A DNA stretch of 41,714 nucleotides from a plasmid: assembly GCF_055900595.2 (NCBI RefSeq), contig NZ_JBVWEU010000004.1; one strand, given 5' to 3'. Made by a program: the position numbers and the translations under genes. Under the pieces are notes generated by a model. The model worked only from the letters and a program-made list of their open reading frames with translations, did no database searches and was not told where the DNA came from. This document shows, piece by piece, positions 1-41,714 of the stretch. How positions within the stretch are numbered: the first letter of the stretch is position 1; every line of letters begins with the position of its first letter.

Positions 1-867
1 ATGGGAAAGAGGTCAAGTTCAGTTCTCAATTATCCACTTGTGGATAAAGTGCAGATTTTTCCGGTGGATAAGTATCGCGATAGCTTGCAATTTCTGTTTT
101 CACTGTCATTATGGGTGGGTAAAAATTTACCCATAGGCATTGAAATGGATACTCAAGCACTCTTGCCAGCTACTAAAACGTTTAAAAAACGCGCCAGTAT
201 AAAGCAATCTAACGAATTGACCGAAGCTGCATATTACCTGCCTCTTCAGGCAAAACGTGTGCTGTGGTTATGCCTCATGCAGGCCTATTTTAATGACAGC
301 CAGGAAGATGACTCTGACGTATTGCCGCTCTTCAAAATCAGCGTTTCCGATTACGTCAAATACTTCAATGTCGCTACGTCTGTCGCCAGTCGTGATGTGA
401 AGGCTGGGGTAAATGCTCTGGGCGAATCAACGGTTACCTTTTATCCAAAAGAAGGTGAGTTTGAAGAAGTTAAACGTCCGTGGCTGGCTGAAGCAGGAAT
501 GAAGCGAGGCCGGGGTTCCTGGCAGATTGAATTTAACTACAAGGTCATGCCATTCCTGGTCGGCTTAACCTCCCAGTTCACTACCTATTCTCTCTATGAC
601 TGTGGCCAGCTTAATAGTGTTCGTGTCATCCGGCTTTATGAAAGCCTGTGTCAGTTCCGGAGCACTGGTGTCTGGATCACCACACATGACTGGTTATGTG
701 AAAGGTTTATGCTCCCTGCCTCGCAGAAAAACAATATTGCTGAAATGAAGCGTACCTTCCTGGAACCTGCTCTGAAGAAAATTAATGAGAAGACGCCATT
801 AAAGGTAACATATACCACTGAAGAAGATGGTCGCTTGCTGTTTAATTTTCTTGATAAAAAACAATAG
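1..867 (+). CDS. repA: RepE/RepA-family iteron-binding replication initiator (F RepFIA RepE-like)
   Basis: 288-aa ORF; KKRASIKQSNELTEAAYYL and RLYESLCQFR segments match my recollection of F RepE; followed by an iteron array. The true start may be the internal Met at 145 (240 aa, closer to RepE length), since 1-144 carries DnaA-box-like and iteron-like sequence. Confidence 0.8.
   Translation: MGKRSSSVLNYPLVDKVQIFPVDKYRDSLQFLFSLSLWVGKNLPIGIEMDTQALLPATKTFKKRASIKQSNELTEAAYYLPLQAKRVLWLCLMQAYFNDSQEDDSDVLPLFKISVSDYVKYFNVATSVASRDVKAGVNALGESTVTFYPKEGEFEEVKRPWLAEAGMKRGRGSWQIEFNYKVMPFLVGLTSQFTTYSLYDCGQLNSVRVIRLYESLCQFRSTGVWITTHDWLCERFMLPASQKNNIAEMKRTFLEPALKKINEKTPLKVTYTTEEDGRLLFNFLDKKQ
30..72. promoter_or_regulatory. 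DnaA-box-like palindrome TTATCCAC-TT-GTGGATAA (30-47) plus GTGGATAAG (64-72) in the rep leader; candidate rep operator
   Basis: Seen directly in sequence; an operator overlapping the rep promoter is typical of RepE-type replicons. Confidence 0.4.
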
Positions 868-929
868 TCTGTAATTTTTATTTCCTCCCCCCTTAGTTTG
901 TTGCTGACATATGGGGGGATACTGAACTT

Positions 930-1337
930 GCTGTGTTTCCCATAGTGCTTGCCTAACTTGACCTGTTTCCCACACTCCCGACCGTCCGAGAAGTTGACCT
1001 GTTTCCCATAGTCCGGGCCGTCCGAGAAGCTGACCTGTTTCCCTTAGTCCGGGCCGTCCGCGAAGTTGACCTGTTCCCCACACTCCCGGCCGCCCGCGAA
1101 GTTGACCTGTTTCCCACAGTCCGGGCCGTCTGCAAAGTTGACCTGTTTCCCACAGTCCCGGCCGCCCGCGAAGTTGACCTGTTTCCCATAATCCGGGCCG
1201 TCCGCGAAGTTGACCTGTTCCCCACACTCCCGGCCGCCCGTGAAGTTGACCTGTTTCCCATAGTCCGGGCCGTCCGCGAAGTTGACCTGTTTCCCATAGT
1301 CCGGAGCGTCCATTAAAGTTGACCTGTTTCCCACAGA
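930..1337. repeat. Eleven direct 36-bp iterons (AAGTTGACCTGTTTCCCA core) downstream of rep; incC-like copy-control/incompatibility array
   Basis: Exact 36-bp periodicity (core at 955, 991, 1027 ... 1315), with two alternating unit variants. Confidence 0.85.
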
Positions 1338-1681
1338 GGATGGAAAACTCTTCTTGTGCTGAGCGTAAGAGCTATCTGCCGGAACGGTTCCTCTTCGCTT
1401 CCTCGCCAGTTCGCTCGCTACGCTCGGTTACATGGCTGCGGCGAGCGCTGATACATAAGGCTCAGCATTGCACTGGTCGTAACTAAAATCAGAATCCTTC
1501 TGAATGACTCTCCTGTCTTGCAAGTTGAATACCTTTCTCAAAGCCCTTTTGTATGAGTTGCTGTTGATGGTCAAAAGTGCGTCTGCGTGTTGCTGCAGTG
1601 TGATTTAGTAGCACGCCCGTCGAGCTTCATCCCCCTTCTGTTGAGAGCGAAATCAAAACAATATGATTTTTTTTCTTGCAA

Positions 1682-1728: not shown

Positions 1729-2934
1729 ATGGACAATATTGAGCAGTTACGGAAAGTCGCTACACGTGCAGGTAAGCTTCTGACATCTTTGAGCGAAAGT
1801 ATCCGACAGCAAAAAGAGGAATTGAAGCTTACCGAGTTCTATCAGGAATACAGCAAAGCCGCTCTGTATAAGCTGCCTAAGCTCAGTAAAGGCAGTGTTG
1901 AGTATGCTGTGTCCGAAATGGAAGCCGGTGGCTACATTTTTAAAAAGAAACCTTCTGGTAATACGATGAAATACGCGATGACGATTCAGAATGTCATCGA
2001 TCTGTATAACCATCGTAAAGTACCGAAGTACAGGGATCGCTTCGATAAAGCCTTTACGATTTTTGTATGTAATCTTAAAGGTGGTGGTTCCAAGACAGTT
2101 TCTACCGCTTCATTATCACATGCTTTTCGAGCTCATCCTCAGCTTCTGTTCGAAGACCTGCGTATTCTGGCCATCGATTTCGATCCGCAGGCATCTCTGA
2201 CAATGTTCCTGAGCCATGAGAATTCAGTGGGCTTGGTTGAAAATACGGCTGCTCAGGCCATGCTCCAGAACGTGTCTCGTGAAGAATTACTTTCCGATTT
2301 TATAGTACCGTCTATTATCCCTGGTGTTGATGTAATCCCCGCTTCCATTGACGATGCATTCCTTGCTGAAGGCTGGAAGGGATTGTGTGAAGAACATCTG
2401 CCAGGGAAAAATATTCATGCGGTGCTTAAAGAGAACATTATCGACAAGCTCCAGCATGACTACGACTTTATTTTCCTTGATAGTGGTCCTCACCTTGATG
2501 CGTTCCTGAAAAACTGCATTGGGGCGGCAGACCTGATGTTGACCCCTCTTCCACCGGCGACGGTTGATTTTCATTCTTCCCTGAAGTTTGTGGCCAGCCT
2601 CCCTGCCCTCATAGATTCCATCGAAATGGATGGGCACACCTGCAATCTCATCGGTAATGTCGGCTTCATGTCCAAGATCCTGAACAAGTCTGATCACAAA
2701 ATTTGCCATAGTCAGGCCAAAGAGGTTTTCGGTGCCGATATGCTAGACATGGTTCTGCCAAGACTGGATGGTTTCGAACGTTGTGGGGAGACTTTTGACA
2801 CAGTTATTTCAGCAAATCCAGCAACCTATGATGGAAGTACAGAGGCACTAAAAAGCGCAAAATCAGCAGCGGAAGACTTTGCGAAGGCAGTCTTTGATCG
2901 CATCGAGTTCATTCGTACTAACGGAGGTATGTGA
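1729..2934 (+). CDS. parA: Type Ia partition ATPase ParA (P1 ParA / F SopA family)
   Basis: 401 aa; deviant Walker A KGGGSKT; long N-terminal extension typical of type Ia ParA; overlaps parB by 4 bp. Confidence 0.9.
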   Translation: MDNIEQLRKVATRAGKLLTSLSESIRQQKEELKLTEFYQEYSKAALYKLPKLSKGSVEYAVSEMEAGGYIFKKKPSGNTMKYAMTIQNVIDLYNHRKVPKYRDRFDKAFTIFVCNLKGGGSKTVSTASLSHAFRAHPQLLFEDLRILAIDFDPQASLTMFLSHENSVGLVENTAAQAMLQNVSREELLSDFIVPSIIPGVDVIPASIDDAFLAEGWKGLCEEHLPGKNIHAVLKENIIDKLQHDYDFIFLDSGPHLDAFLKNCIGAADLMLTPLPPATVDFHSSLKFVASLPALIDSIEMDGHTCNLIGNVGFMSKILNKSDHKICHSQAKEVFGADMLDMVLPRLDGFERCGETFDTVISANPATYDGSTEALKSAKSAAEDFAKAVFDRIEFIRTNGGM

Positions 2935-3908
2935 TGTCGAATGAGAAAAGAAAAACCATCGGCAGACAGTTAAATACCCAGGCGTCAATTGCGGAAATGA
3001 CGGACACCGGTAGAAGCCAGGTATTTACCTTAAAAACCGGCAGGAAGGTAACGTTCAGGTTTGTTCGGGTGCCTGCATCTGAAGTTGAAAGTAAGACCTT
3101 CGTAAACCAGGAAAACAACGGAAGAGATCAACTTGCACTGACCAGGGAATCCCTGAAATCCATTATCCAGACGATTAAGTTTCAGCAGTTCTTTCCCTGT
3201 ATTGGTATTAAGCAAAGTGAAAGGATTGAGATACTGGATGGTTCAAGACGGCGAGCCTCAGCAATTTTTGTCCGTACAGGCCTTGATGTAATGGTTACCG
3301 AAGAGCATTTATCAGCTGATGAAGCTCGCCAACTGGCTAAAGATATCCAGACAGCTAAAGAACATAATCTTCGGGAGATTGGCCTGAGATTGATCGCTCT
3401 TAAAGAGTCCGGATTTAATCAAAAGGAAATTGCTGAACTGGAGGGGTTATCTCAAGCTAAAGTTACCAGGGCGCTGCAGGCGGCGGCCGTACCGCAAGAC
3501 TTGATTTCTCTGTTCCCGGTTCAGTCGGAGCTATCGTTTAGTGACTATAAACTTCTTTTAGAAGTTAATGAAAAACTCAGTGAAAAGGGATTAACGCCTG
3601 AAGAACTCATTCAGTCTGTATCAGCTCAGCTCGATGCAATTTTGAGTGAAGGCGAGCGACCAGAAGACGAACAGAAAGCCAGTATACTGAAGCTGATTTC
3701 TCAGGCATCTCAGGCATTGATAGATCCATCTCCCAAGGAAAAGTCAGTGGTTTCCCCACTCTGGTCTTTTGAAGAAAAGGACAAGTTCGCGCGTAAGCGT
3801 GTGAAAGGGCGTACGCTGACTTATGAGTTTAGCCGTATGTCAAAAGTGATTCAGGATGAACTGGACAAGGCTATCAACGAGGTCCTTGACAGAAATTTGA
3901 GTCAATAA
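2931..3908 (+). CDS. parB: Partition centromere-binding protein ParB
   Basis: 325 aa; GSRR motif (ILDGSRRRAS) characteristic of ParB/SopB; translationally coupled to parA. Confidence 0.85.
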   Translation: MMSNEKRKTIGRQLNTQASIAEMTDTGRSQVFTLKTGRKVTFRFVRVPASEVESKTFVNQENNGRDQLALTRESLKSIIQTIKFQQFFPCIGIKQSERIEILDGSRRRASAIFVRTGLDVMVTEEHLSADEARQLAKDIQTAKEHNLREIGLRLIALKESGFNQKEIAELEGLSQAKVTRALQAAAVPQDLISLFPVQSELSFSDYKLLLEVNEKLSEKGLTPEELIQSVSAQLDAILSEGERPEDEQKASILKLISQASQALIDPSPKEKSVVSPLWSFEEKDKFARKRVKGRTLTYEFSRMSKVIQDELDKAINEVLDRNLSQ

Positions 3909-3989: not shown

Positions 3990-5261
3990 TTACGCCAGTT
4001 TCGCTGAAGGAATATCTGACCATCGTGTCGTATAAGCAGGAGAAAGCATCTCCCGTTTCATCTGCCATTCCGGGGCAATACCCCGCCCCGCAAACCATAC
4101 TTTACCCAGCCCTGAGTTGTTGATCCCGTCCAGAACCTTCATCAGCTCAGCACTGTAAGGGCGTGGCGGGCGTTCGTCGAACAGCTGCAGCTGCGAAACG
4201 CCGGAGCCGGTGAAGTCATTCAGCATAACTCCGGCTTTGGCATACCGGTGCCCATCCCTCCAGATACGCTCCAGAGCCGTTGTAGCGGCTGCAATGATGT
4301 CCCTGGTGTCCTGAGTGGGTGTAAGAAGTTTTTCCGTAGCCACGTTGCCGTAGTAAGGCTCTTTAATGGCGAACGGAGACGTTTTGATGAAAACGGAAAT
4401 ATGCCGGCAATACTGGTGCTCTTTACGCAGTTTTTCAGAGGCCCGCTCTGCGTGCTGACAGATAGCCTGACGGAGTGACTCGTACTCCGTGATCTTCACG
4501 CCAAAACTGCGGCTGCAGACAATTTGCTGTTTCGTCGGAGGGGCTTCCTCAAGCGAAAGGCAGCTTTCCCCGTTCAGTTCCCGTACCGTTCGCTCAAGGA
4601 CCACAGAAAAATTTTTGCGGATGAAGGCCGGGTTCGTCAGGGCGAGATCGAGCGCGGTCTTAATGCCCAGTACATTCAGCTTGCGTGCAATACGGTTACC
4701 CACCCCCCAGATTTCTTCAACCGGCTGCAGTGAAAGCAGTTTCCGCGTTCTCTGCGGATTTCCCCTGGTCAGAGCAAGTACGCCACGAAACTGTTTCCAC
4801 TCTTTTGAGGCCCACTGGGCTGATTTTGCGAGGGTCTTCGTTGGTCCGGCGCCCACGCCAATGGTCAGGTGGGTACAGTCATACACGTGCTGACGCAGCT
4901 GCCGGCCGAAGTCCTCAAGCTCCATACAGTGCTCCACGCCGGTCAAATCGAGGAACATCTCATCAATTGAATACTGTTCCACTCTGGGGGCCAGTTCCTC
5001 CAGGCTGTTCATCACGCGCGCCAACATCGAGGCATAAAGTTCATAGTTACTTGAAAACGCATATATTTTTTCCGGGTATCTTTCGTTTTTTATCTGAAAC
5101 CACGGAGTTTCCATTTTGATCCAGGGCTTCGCCTCGGCACTGCGAGCGATTACATTCCCGTCGTTGTTGCTCAGGACGACTATCGGCTTTCCTTTCAAAT
5201 CCGGGCGGAAAACACGTTCACAGCTGGCATAGAAGCTGTTCACATCGGCCAGGGCAAACAT
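3990..5261 (-). CDS. umuC: Error-prone translesion polymerase subunit UmuC (Pol V catalytic subunit, Y-family)
   Basis: 423 aa; N-terminus [22 protein letters not shown] is typical of UmuC/MucB; start overlaps the umuD stop. Confidence 0.9.
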
Positions 5262-8434: not shown

Positions 8435-8448
8435 GTTGGAGTCATTAC

Positions 8449-8752
8449 CAACCAGTTCACCACCTACTCGCTCCGCGATTGTGGCAGTCTTCGAAATCCC
8501 CGGACGATCCGCCTTTATGAAAGTCTTGCTCAATTCAAATCTTCAGGCTTATGGGTTACTACTCATGCTTGGTTAAATGACCGTTTCGTCTTACCGGAAT
8601 CCCAGCAGAAGAACTTGGCAGAGTTGAAACGATCTTTCCTTGATCCTGCACTCAAGCAGATAAATGAGAAAACACCTTTACTTGCTAAGTATAGTATTGA
8701 TGATTCAGGAAAATTTCTGTTCTCAATAATTGATAAGCAAAATCCCGTCTGA
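8449..8752 (+). pseudogene. 3' fragment (about 97 codons) of a second RepE-family rep gene, truncated by IS1
   Basis: Frame starting at 8462 translates ...TYSLRDCGSLRNPRTIRLYESLAQFKSSGLWVTTHAWLNDRFVLPESQQKNLAELKRSFLDPALKQINEKTPL..., paralogous to the C-terminus of the rep at 1-867; no start codon, begins at the IS1 end. Confidence 0.7.
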
Positions 8753-8799
8753 CATAAATCAGCACACATGAGCCTGTCATTTGACAAATTTTTGTCATG

Positions 8800-9160
8800 A
8801 AGATGGGCGGATTTCCACACAGCACCGGCGCCCGGTAAGGTGGGCGGATTCCCACACGGCACCGGCGCCCGGCAAGATGGGCGGATTTCCACACAGCACC
8901 GGCGCCCGGTAAGGTGGGCGGATTTCCACACAGCACCGGCGCCCGGCAAGGTGGGCGGATTCCCACACGGCACCGGCGCCCGGCAAGATGGGCGGATTTC
9001 CACACAGCACCGGCGCCCGGTAAGGTGGGCGGATTTCCACACAGCACCGGCGCCCGGCAAGGTGGGCGGATTCCCACACGGCACCGGCGCGCGGCAAGGT
9101 GGGCGGATTTCCACACGGCACCGGCGCCCGGCAAGGTGGGCCGATTCCCATATCGACATG
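8800..9160. repeat. About ten direct 37-bp iterons (GGGCGGATTTCCACACAGCACCGGCGCCCGG) of the disrupted second replicon
   Basis: Exact 37-bp periodicity from about 8801 to 9134, immediately downstream of the rep fragment. Confidence 0.8.
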
Positions 9161-9641
9161 TATGTAGCTTGTGTTATCTGTGGATTGTGCAGCTCAGCGG
9201 GTCGCTGGTCGTATGGCGGAGTGTCCCCCGTAACCGGCCGCGTGCGGCCGCTAACGCGCAGTACGGCGCCGCGTCCCGCAGACGGGCCGCCGTTCCCGCG
9301 CGCAGCACTGCGCACCCCCGTGGGGGACGTACGGCAGCTGCGTGGCGGTGAGCGGGATTAGGGCTTTGCAGCTACCGTGTTAAGTTCCCTGGTGTCGCTG
9401 AAATAGTTGATGAACATCCCCCTAAGCGTCAGCAGCAAGCTGCCGCCGCTTAGGCCCCGGAAATCACGCCCTTTACGTCGTAAACGCCGTAAAGCCCGCT
9501 CACCGGGGTTAAAAGGGATTACTTTGACTTCTTCATTGCTGTTCGCGAGTTAAGGCTAATCAGGGCAGGGGGTAGGGTGGCAGAATTTATAGCCCGGCAA
9601 CCGGCTACGCCGGGCTTTCGGCGCCATTTTACAACACAGAC

Positions 9642-37259: not shown

Positions 37260-37278
37260 AGACTCCTCCTATGCTCAA

Positions 37279-37358
37279 ACTATAGGGCAGATTTGTCTAC
37301 GGGCTCGGGGTCACTCCAACTATAGGGCAGATTTGTCTACGGGCTCGGGGTCACTCCA
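37279..37358. repeat. Perfect 40-bp tandem duplication between the IS3-family IR and orfA
   Basis: ACTATAGGGCAGATTTGTCTACGGGCTCGGGGTCACTCCA occurs twice back-to-back (37279-37318, 37319-37358). Confidence 0.9.
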
Positions 37359-38146: not shown

Positions 38147-38719
38147 GGTTTTTCCTCATATGCTGAGTGTGCCAGGGAGTATTCCCGCATAGGTGAAGTA
38201 TATGCCTGCAAGCCCGGCTTGTATAGGTGTTACATATGCAGATGGTAGGTATATGCGTATGCTTTGCCTATGCAGATGCCCGGCATATGGATATGTTACA
38301 CCTATGTTGGTTTCTCACTTTTCCCGCTCAGATCCGAAAAAAGGCAGTTCCGGATCTGATTCAGCCCCGCCGGCGCGCAGCGGCCCGGAAACACAAGATG
38401 TAGCGGTGTTTCCAGCTGTCAGTGACCATATATGTTGTGTCCCTCCCCTGCCCCGTGACCGGCCGCTCACCACCCTGAAAGGGCGCTGTGGTTATTCCGT
38501 GTGCGTGGTACACTTCCGGAAACTGTGGAATAACATAAAAGTCGGATCCGGCCAGAGCGGCCGTCAGGTAATTTAATTACGTTGTTATATGGCTGCTTAT
38601 TATTTTAGTATGTGAAAATCACTCTAGTGAAAGTCACTGTCACGACAGAGTGGCACTCATCTGACGATGATTGAGGTGTGGTAAAATTGCACGGCTAACT
38701 ATTCAACTGAGGAAAGGAC

Positions 38720-40952: not shown

Positions 40953-41510
40953 CTTGTTACCTCCTGTTGACCGGATCCCAAGCATAGATATCTGAATTCA
41001 AATTGCCTAGTGAAATGTCTGGATATGCCGCATTTTTCCCCTTATACAGCGAAGCTGGCCAAAGGCCAGCCCGCTTGGATTTATCGCTTTTGCCAGTAAA
41101 TCAGCATGGCAAGGAACAGGATTGTTGCCCCCTGAGAAGCGGTCAGGAAAGTTTCCAGCAATGACATTATCGTAAAACTCCGCATTATTCAGGTGTGTGA
41201 TTCAGGGGCCTTAGTCCCCCTTTTACAGGACGTAGTGTTCTGTCACGACGGAAGCCAGGGTTAATAAAAACGATTCGAATATGTCTGCAGGGACGATAGA
41301 AATCTTCGTGCGGGTTGTCTCGCTGTAGCCGGCTCTGGAGAGCGACTCGGGGGAGGAGTAGTATCTTCCGGCCACGGATATGATCGAGCCAGCAGTGCTC
41401 GCCGCAGTCGAGCGACAGGGCGAAGCCCCGAGTGAGCGAGGAAGCACCAGGGAACAAAACTTATAAATTCTGCTTACGCTCAATGCCTGAAAAATCACCT
41501 CCCCTCGGGG

Positions 41511-41528
41511 TTATCCACTTATCCACGG
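41511..41528. promoter_or_regulatory. Two tandem DnaA boxes (TTATCCACT, TATCCACGG)
   Basis: Seen directly; followed by an AT-rich tract, as in RepE-type origins. Confidence 0.55.
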
Positions 41529-41590
41529 GCATATTTTTATAAAGTACTTTTTTATTCTTTTTCTTTATTTTACATCTTTTAGGGAGCCTG
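41529..41590. promoter_or_regulatory. AT-rich tract (candidate DNA-unwinding element of the origin)
   Basis: About 60 bp of more than 80 percent A+T immediately after the DnaA boxes. Confidence 0.4.
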
Positions 41591-41626
41591 AAAGCCGCGT
41601 ACAGTGCGGCCTGAGAGGGGGCCTGT

Positions 41627-41714
41627 ATGGGCAACTGGTAAACATAATATGGGAAATTAATCACGTATCAGTGGGTTTTGTGTCAACAAGCTATGGGATA
41701 TGCATCAACAAGCT
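41627..41714. repeat. Four 22-bp iteron-like units each starting (A/G)TGGG; a fifth unit would be 1-22 if the sequence is circular
   Basis: ATGGG/GTGGG at 41627, 41649, 41671, 41693, and the window starts ATGGG exactly 22 bp after the last; units 3 and 4 share TCAACAAGCT. Confidence 0.45.

Follow-up and report, generated by a model that had tools for sequence, protein, structure and literature searches.

Our analysis of a 41,714-nt plasmid sequence (here called the window, by which we mean the whole stretch of DNA that was analyzed) indicates that the region running from about position 41397, across the end of the window and on to about position 1446, is very probably the basic replicon of an IncR plasmid, and that the 288-residue product annotated from its first base is an over-extended form of the replication initiator. 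Comparison with other plasmids puts it beyond reasonable doubt that the ends of the window adjoin each other and that the window is a circular IncR plasmid opened at the annotated rep start. The IncR replicon seen here is already known; it belongs to a very common, named plasmid group and follows the textbook design of an iteron plasmid. In the accessible literature we found no description of the IncR origin, only of 36-bp repeats in IncR genome papers. When the junction is closed, the elements of the replicon are read in the following order, with positions given as those of the window.

41397-41445, plus strand: left copy of the flanking element, GCTCGCCGCAG-N-GCGAGGAAGC, 49 nt
41511-41519, plus strand: first left DnaA box, TTATCCACT
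41519-41527, plus strand: second left DnaA box, TTATCCACG, overlapping the first by 1 nt
41529-41582, no strand assigned: AT-rich tract, 54 bp, 83% A+T against 46% in the whole window
41583-41626, no strand assigned: spacer between the AT tract and iteron 1, 68% G+C
41627-41714, plus strand: origin iterons 1-4, with an (A/G)TGGG head and a TCAAC-like tail
41627, plus strand: start of iteron 1, ATGGGCAACTGGTAAACATAAT, 22 bp
41649, plus strand: start of iteron 2, ATGGGAAATTAATCACGTATCA, 22 bp
41671, plus strand: start of iteron 3, GTGGGTTTTGTGTCAACAAGCT, 22 bp, opening with GTGGG
41693, plus strand: start of iteron 4, ATGGGATATGCATCAACAAGCT, 22 bp
1-22, plus strand: iteron 5, ATGGGAAAGAGGTCAAGTTCAG, the best match to the downstream consensus (18 of 22 positions); its ATG is the apparently mis-called rep start
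30-38, plus strand: right DnaA box, convergent with the box at 39-47
39-47, minus strand: right DnaA box, a perfect TTATCCACA
63-71, minus strand: third right-hand DnaA box
85-112, plus strand: putative rep promoter, with TTGCAA as -35 (85-90) and, after a spacer of 16 nt, TGtCATTAT as extended -10 (104-112)
110-135, no strand assigned: predicted operator, an inverted repeat TATGGG-N14-CCCATA with the core TGGGTAAA/TTTACCCA at 116-133
145-867, plus strand: rep (IncR RepB), encoding an initiator of the Rep_3 family of 240 aa with the domains WH1 and WH2
927-1336, minus strand: inverted iteron array, 12 cores TGGGAAACAGGTCAAC, mostly at 36-bp spacing
1397-1446, minus strand: right, inverted copy of the flanking element, 50 nt

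The left part of the origin carries two tandem DnaA boxes at 41511-41527, as a preliminary description of this DNA had proposed, and these are kept in the relatives L005 and L006. The AT-rich tract that the same description had placed beside them was recovered at 83% A+T over 54 bp; AT tracts that align with it are present in F itself and in the IncN, Pantoea and F-like relatives, and it is presumed to be the DNA unwinding element. Three more DnaA boxes, which the preliminary description did not include, lie to the right of the iterons (30-71), inside the supposed coding sequence. The convergent pair among them (30-47) is kept in the closer relatives L006, L007 and L009 and is absent from the IncN and L005 origins. 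Five of the 11 DnaA-box matches in the 41.7-kb window thus fall within 275 bp, a degree of clustering with a Poisson P of ~1.6e-8.

The five origin iterons follow one another at a period of exactly 22 bp, and as 41693 + 22 = 41715, the unit that follows iteron 4 begins at position 1. All five positions given earlier for ATGGG-headed units proved exact; the third unit, however, starts with GTGGG, so that the ATGGG head is found in four of the five. A run of five TGGG heads at this period occurs only once in the circularized window, and the longest such run in 200 composition-preserving block shuffles was at most three. The origin iterons are degenerate, with a mean pairwise identity of 55%, and units 1 to 5 agree with the 22-nt consensus of the downstream repeats, which lie in the opposite orientation, at 15, 12, 10, 12 and 18 positions, respectively. 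When compared one by one with the 16-nt core, units 2 to 4 do not stand out from background hits with up to 6 mismatches, and their significance therefore rests on their exact phasing and on their register with relatives. The TGGG heads form invariant alignment columns, in register, in four related replicons, and the IncN, Pantoea and F-like relatives, which have five or six iterons, share this register. This register, together with the exact 22-bp phasing, led us to reject the view that the units are chance matches, and from sequence comparison the upstream units are the motif of the downstream array in inverted orientation. The head and tail of the origin iterons are kept while the middle is free, a pattern that would fit bipartite recognition by two winged-helix domains; their degeneracy also means that occupancy of every unit is not certain.

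The initiator belongs to the Rep_3 family, with scores of 109.8 bits for Rep3_N (cut-off 22.4) and 50.6 bits for Rep3_C (cut-off 21.1) when the domains are assigned by the Pfam gathering cut-offs (PF01051 and PF21205). It is of the same fold family as F RepE (251 aa, PDB 1REP), and the 240-aa Rep is colinear with it from end to end (RepE residues 12-235, E 9e-34), but the two share 32% identity. Against the NCBIfam RepE equivalog NF010305 Rep scores 141.8 bits, under the cut-off of 342, and we rejected it as a RepE orthologue; the earlier label of a RepE-type origin is refined in that the initiator is a member of the Rep_3 family without being an orthologue of RepE. Its nearest studied relative is the RepA of IncN (239 aa), at 57% identity; identity is 70% to the Rep of an F-like E. 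coli plasmid (243 aa) and 59% to that of a Pantoea plasmid (228 aa). The closer relatives came from the protein search; they are a contig of Klebsiella aerogenes, one from a metagenome, with 94% identity at the protein level, and Pantoea. A common layout is seen in the relatives: one or more DnaA boxes, an alignable T-rich tract ending in TTTTAG and five to six 22-bp iterons, followed by a promoter with an inverted repeat, the rep ATG and, after rep, an inverted iteron array. The closer relatives and IncR have further features in common, namely heterogeneous origin iterons in which only an (A/G)TGGG head and a TCAA(C/G) tail are kept, the right-hand convergent DnaA pair, the TATGGG-N14-CCCATA inverted repeat, a promoter of the form TTGCA(A)-16-TGnCATTAT, and the sequence CCCATAGG...ATG that leads into rep.

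A comparison with the studied systems places this replicon between two of them. The F ori2 (oriS)/RepE/incC system (IncFIA) likewise consists of tandem DnaA boxes, an AT tract, direct iterons, a promoter with its operator, rep and inverted iterons (PMC13028717). Our own reading of F gave two DnaA boxes, an AT tract and four plus-strand iterons, with minus-strand incC iterons after repE, and bears out the order of DnaA boxes, AT tract, iterons, rep and downstream iterons that had been likened to F ori2. The IncR replicon has the features of an ori2-type origin: tandem DnaA boxes, an AT tract and direct iterons stand upstream of rep, the predicted inverted-repeat operator shares bases with the iterons and overlaps the putative rep promoter, and iterons in the opposite orientation, like those of incC, lie downstream of rep. 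The two DnaA boxes of F are contained in GGGGTTATCCACTTATCCACGGGG, and the IncR module GGGGTTATCCACTTATCCACGGG is identical to that of F; the spacers between AT tract and iterons are of similar length. In pairwise BLAST, the left flank, DnaA boxes and most of the AT tract (41165-41562) match F upstream of ori2 at 72%, the segment at 1327-1449 matches F just beyond incC at 87%, and the resD-like integrase matches F resD at 80%. By the same method rep and both iteron sets have no DNA match to F, and they match IncN at 64-78% in segments.

The differences from F lie in and around the iterons. The F iteron is the reverse complement of TGTGACAAATTGCCCTCAG, as against TGGGAAACAGGTCAAC in IncR; its four origin iterons are spaced at 21, 33 and 22 bp, whereas the five of IncR are evenly spaced; incC is reported to hold five iterons (PMC13028717; four in our scan), in contrast to twelve at 36 bp in IncR; and F has no DnaA boxes between its iterons and the promoter, where IncR has three. 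The IncN basic replicon (pCU1/R46 type), which supplies the closest studied initiator, resembles IncR in its five 22-bp upstream iterons headed TGGGAA and in register with those of IncR, in an AT tract that aligns, in an inverted-repeat operator just before the ATG, and in a long downstream inverted array at 37-bp spacing. It differs from IncR in its iteron core (TGGGAATCCGCCCACC against TGGGAAACAGGTCAAC), in origin iterons that are nearly identical to each other where those of IncR are degenerate, and in its DnaA boxes, of which there is a single imperfect one to the left and none to the right. With 57% identity to the IncN RepA, another iteron core and IncR typing, the replicon is not an IncN replicon; from these alignments, IncN shares the architecture of IncR and the specificity determinants of the two differ. 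The IncR replicon is thus, as far as sequence homology can define it, a mosaic of an F ori2-homologous frame of DnaA boxes and AT tract with an initiator and iterons nearest to those of IncN. The statement in the preliminary description that the arrangement is the same as F ori2 is accordingly correct for the frame, while the specificity core is like that of IncN.

P1 oriR/RepA/incA offers a further point of reference, with five origin iterons, DnaA boxes on both sides, rep downstream and control iterons after rep; it differs in that its initiator is not known to be related in sequence, its AT-rich part contains GATC-containing heptamers and its rep promoter lies inside the iterons. A replicon of the Klebsiella pneumoniae plasmid pGSH5000 was reportedly described by da Silva-Tatley and Steyn in Molecular Microbiology in 1993, under a title said to include the words 'features of both the mini-replicon of pCU1 and the ori-2 of F'. 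This title matches the mosaic found here, and we take the paper to be probably the first description of this replicon type. Those accessible papers that name pGSH500 concern its IncFII alpha replicon.

The replicon is bracketed by an inverted pair of elements of about 50 nt, the pattern of which is found exactly twice in the window and in none of the shuffles. The same pair flanks F ori2-repE-incC, and single copies are found upstream of four related replicons. The element appears to resemble the ssiA (n' primosome assembly) sequence of ColE1/pBR322, and it may be a primosome-assembly (ssi/PAS-like) site. Our search of the literature on primosome sites near F ori2 returned general statements about ColE1 only. 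Single-stranded DNA folding gave the flanking elements and the spacer no support against shuffles (Z-scores of -0.2 to -1.1), and the small hairpin predicted in the spacer (41583-41626) was no better than in shuffled sequences.

In an F-like E. coli plasmid (L003; CP077244.1, 49418-53612) an IncR-like rep (70%) with six upstream iterons lies between sopA and resD, and, with F and IncR as the reference, this rep core runs the opposite way relative to those flanks. The inversion points to an exchange or flipping of replicon cores inside a frame that is itself conserved. A more far-reaching reading, which we regard as possible though doubtful, is that the origin of the IncR clade is a little-documented hybrid, with an IncN-like core of rep and iterons set in an F-type frame and with heterogeneous iterons, two-sided DnaA boxes and bracketing elements. 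On its left side the frame may in this case comprise resD, a first PAS-like element and the AT tract with the double DnaA box, and on its right side a second PAS-like element together with parA; the combination of heterogeneous origin iterons with a near-perfect 12-copy array, two-sided DnaA boxes and the bracketing pair may be one that does not occur together in F or IncN. The bracketing pair of about 50 nt could serve as strand-specific primosome loading sites and also as recombination handles for swapping or inverting cores.

Downstream of rep, 12 minus-strand cores of the form TGGGAAACAGGTCAAC lie at 927-1334, each with 0-4 mismatches, and tandem-repeat detection returned a period of 36 with 10.5 copies. 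Inverted arrays of the same kind are found after rep in IncN, L005, L003 and F, and by analogy with these systems the array at 927-1336 is presumed to be the copy-control and incompatibility array. The incC-like iterons that had been proposed after rep are present as an inverted array; with 12 copies at 36 bp, however, it is nearer to the 37-bp array of IncN than to the five iterons of F. In IncR genome papers 'the iterons' are these downstream 36-bp repeats only, and this usage, together with the near-perfect downstream copies and the degenerate upstream ones, speaks for a reading in which the working origin is the downstream array and the five upstream units serve only the autoregulation of rep. 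The IncN plasmid pCU1 lends this reading a further point, in that titles on it, as cited, speak of 'replication origins' in the plural. Functional studies of pCU1 are said to be those of Krishnan and Iyer in 1990, Papp and Iyer in 1995 and Zoueva et al. in 2003, and three origins have reportedly been named. We nevertheless consider it improbable that the array is the origin in IncR, as it is without a DnaA box within 1 kb and without an adjoining AT-rich tract, whereas both accompany the upstream set, in a module with homology to F ori2, an origin defined by experiment (PMC13028717), and a dedicated inverted-repeat operator is already present for autoregulation. While the upstream region is thus the preferred origin, initiation may also take place at a further site beyond it, by analogy with the plural origins of pCU1.

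The putative rep promoter, which matches 8 of 12 consensus positions, is kept in L006-L009. A promoter and terminator scan across the junction gave no plus-strand promoter above threshold, the rep promoter included, and it was therefore identified by its conservation in relatives. The predicted operator overlaps the conserved -10 and its arms carry the iteron head; its TATGGG...CCCATA layout is also kept in L006-L009, with similar inverted repeats in IncN and L005. Alignment with homologues indicates that translation of rep almost certainly starts at the ATG at 145, giving 240 aa, and supports the assignment of nucleotides 1-144 to origin, promoter and operator DNA rather than to coding sequence. 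This agrees with the earlier suspicion that the first 144 nt of the ORF at 1-867 are origin or operator, which is now backed by colinearity, closed frames, a 1-nt shift and the position of the promoter. Residue 13 of the 240-aa form aligns to residue 12 of RepE, and along its whole length this form is colinear with both RepE and the IncN RepA. Of the homologues in the range of 50-89% identity, most have 228-251 aa and cover ~80% of the 288-aa query. In three relatives with proteins of 228-243 aa the upstream frame is closed by TAA within 4-11 codons, as compared with 66 open codons here. The distance from the ATGGG of iteron 5 to the rep ATG is 145 nt in a 94%-identical relative, against 144 nt in the window, and the reading frame is therefore not kept. 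The promoter and operator that are kept across relatives (85-135) both lie downstream of position 1.

In some relatives a longer N-terminus has been called; it mostly begins with MGK or MGN, which is the translation of ATGGGAA, and is without conservation at the protein level. Over-long N-termini of this kind are seen among the homologues P0025, P0028, P0032, P0051 and P0080, and in P0028 and P0080 the MGK/MGN motif recurs after 22 aa, equal to three 22-bp iterons. As MGK/MGN corresponds to ATGGGAA and recurs at 3 x 22 bp, these N-termini are translated iterons. It would accordingly be most surprising if the 288-aa ORF were the true product, with nucleotides 1-144 also encoding an N-terminal extension of Rep. 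Its frame is open from position 1 and the NCBI pipeline annotates WP_004118283.1 with 288 aa in most records (at least 1000 contigs), but the extension has no counterpart in RepE, in the IncN RepA or in the other homologues, its frame does not stay open in relatives and is off by 1 nt in the 94%-identical one, and similar 'extensions' elsewhere are the translated iterons just described. Moreover, the conserved promoter lies downstream of position 1, the scan found no promoter-like plus-strand site upstream in the origin, and no Shine-Dalgarno sequence precedes position 1; the one before the ATG at 145 is weak (AGG). The 288-aa and the 240-aa forms are each found on at least 1000 public contigs, and the shorter form is already used by other submitters, with at least one record (H49) written from base 145.

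Position 1 is the first base of the rep CDS called by the NCBI pipeline (WP_004118283.1, 288 aa), and other records, H35 among them, are likewise written from this base, which shows that the window was opened at the annotated start codon. The joined sequence of 41214-41714 and 1-1400 (1,901 nt) gives a single ungapped match of 99.9-100% in the plasmid-collection records listed, and more than 1,400 records reach at least 80% coverage of this query. The two junction matches that were examined (records H2 and H24) are IncR by PLSDB/MOB-suite typing. At least 99% identity to rep is found in 1,556 records, and the near-identity of rep and its flanks to IncR-typed plasmids makes the window a member of the IncR group. 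NZ_CP042971, an IncR plasmid and one of the two examined matches, is collinear with the window over 7.7 kb (99.2%), in a single alignment that begins at 38413, passes over the junction and ends at 4400. These single-piece junction matches and the alignment across the junction confirm the contiguity of the window ends that had been proposed earlier. PLSDB yielded no record with at least 80% coverage of the first 25 kb of the window and none identical to the whole window, which by its sequence is a mosaic resistance plasmid; the case for circularity therefore rests on the collinearity of the backbone and not on an identical record. We rejected as practically without probability the notion that the periodicity runs across the ends by chance or that the window is a linear fragment with unjoined ends, since nothing favors it beyond the fact that raw sequence carries no topology information, and it is opposed by the more than 1,400 records matched by the joined ends as one ungapped piece, by the 7.7-kb collinear alignment that spans the junction, and by shuffles in which no TGGG run exceeded three.

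The arrangement suggests a model for the replication of the plasmid, drawn by analogy with the F RepE/ori2 model as summarized in PMC13028717. Rep monomers would bind the five phased iterons and, with 22 bp corresponding to about two helical turns, would come to lie on one face of the DNA, while host DnaA would occupy the boxes at both sides of the iterons. Together, Rep and DnaA would open the AT tract and allow the loading of the DnaB helicase. Rep dimers would bind the inverted-repeat operator over the -10 and so repress the rep promoter. The downstream array would titrate Rep and pair with the origin iterons, by handcuffing or looping, resulting in low copy number and incompatibility. The binding of Rep, the dependence on DnaA, the site of melting and the start of transcription are all predictions made by the same analogy.

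Several other features of the window touch on its replication and maintenance. Directly after the replicon (1729-3908) lie genes for a 401-aa ParA, with an N-terminal HTH and SopA-like, and a 325-aa ParB; the start of ParB overlaps the stop of ParA, and the arrangement is ordinary and mirrors F sopAB. At 8444-9361 there is an IncN remnant, in which the last third of repA (98% identity to RepA residues 138-239) precedes an array of 9.5 IncN iterons of 37 bp; this remnant contains no intact initiator or origin. Its iterons could titrate incoming IncN RepA. The IncN segment is a frequent passenger of IncR backbones (PMC9412624). Two further repeats were observed, at 11228-11377, where two adjacent blocks contain ~11 copies of an 11-bp unit (TTTGTAGTTTA), and at 37274-37358, with 2.1 copies of a 40-bp unit. 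Two minus-strand ORFs annotated by RefSeq as 'hypothetical protein' overlie the replicon. WP_159373846.1 (41461-41664) extends over the DnaA boxes, the AT tract and iterons 1 and 2, and WP_000339857.1 (1044-1313) lies within the 36-bp array and has a 12-aa sequence repeat; both are probably spurious ORFs on origin or control DNA.

The value of these results lies in a correction of annotation and in a map of coordinates, and they leave the understanding of iteron plasmids unchanged. Coordinate 1 of the window is an artefact of gene calling, and analyses that treat the two ends as separate split the origin. In the 288-aa RefSeq IncR rep, 48 residues appear to be translated origin DNA. The start artefact by which ATGGGAA iterons are called as MGK or MGN recurs in gene calls across this Rep family, with iterons as the apparent cause of a systematic error in the choice of start codon. 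For the design of IncR mini-replicons, for typing probes and for copy-number models, the map proposed here consists of an origin at 41511-144, rep at 145-867 and a control array at 927-1336. The hybrid features of the IncR-clade origin, if they are real and undescribed, would bear on the modular exchange of iteron replicons.
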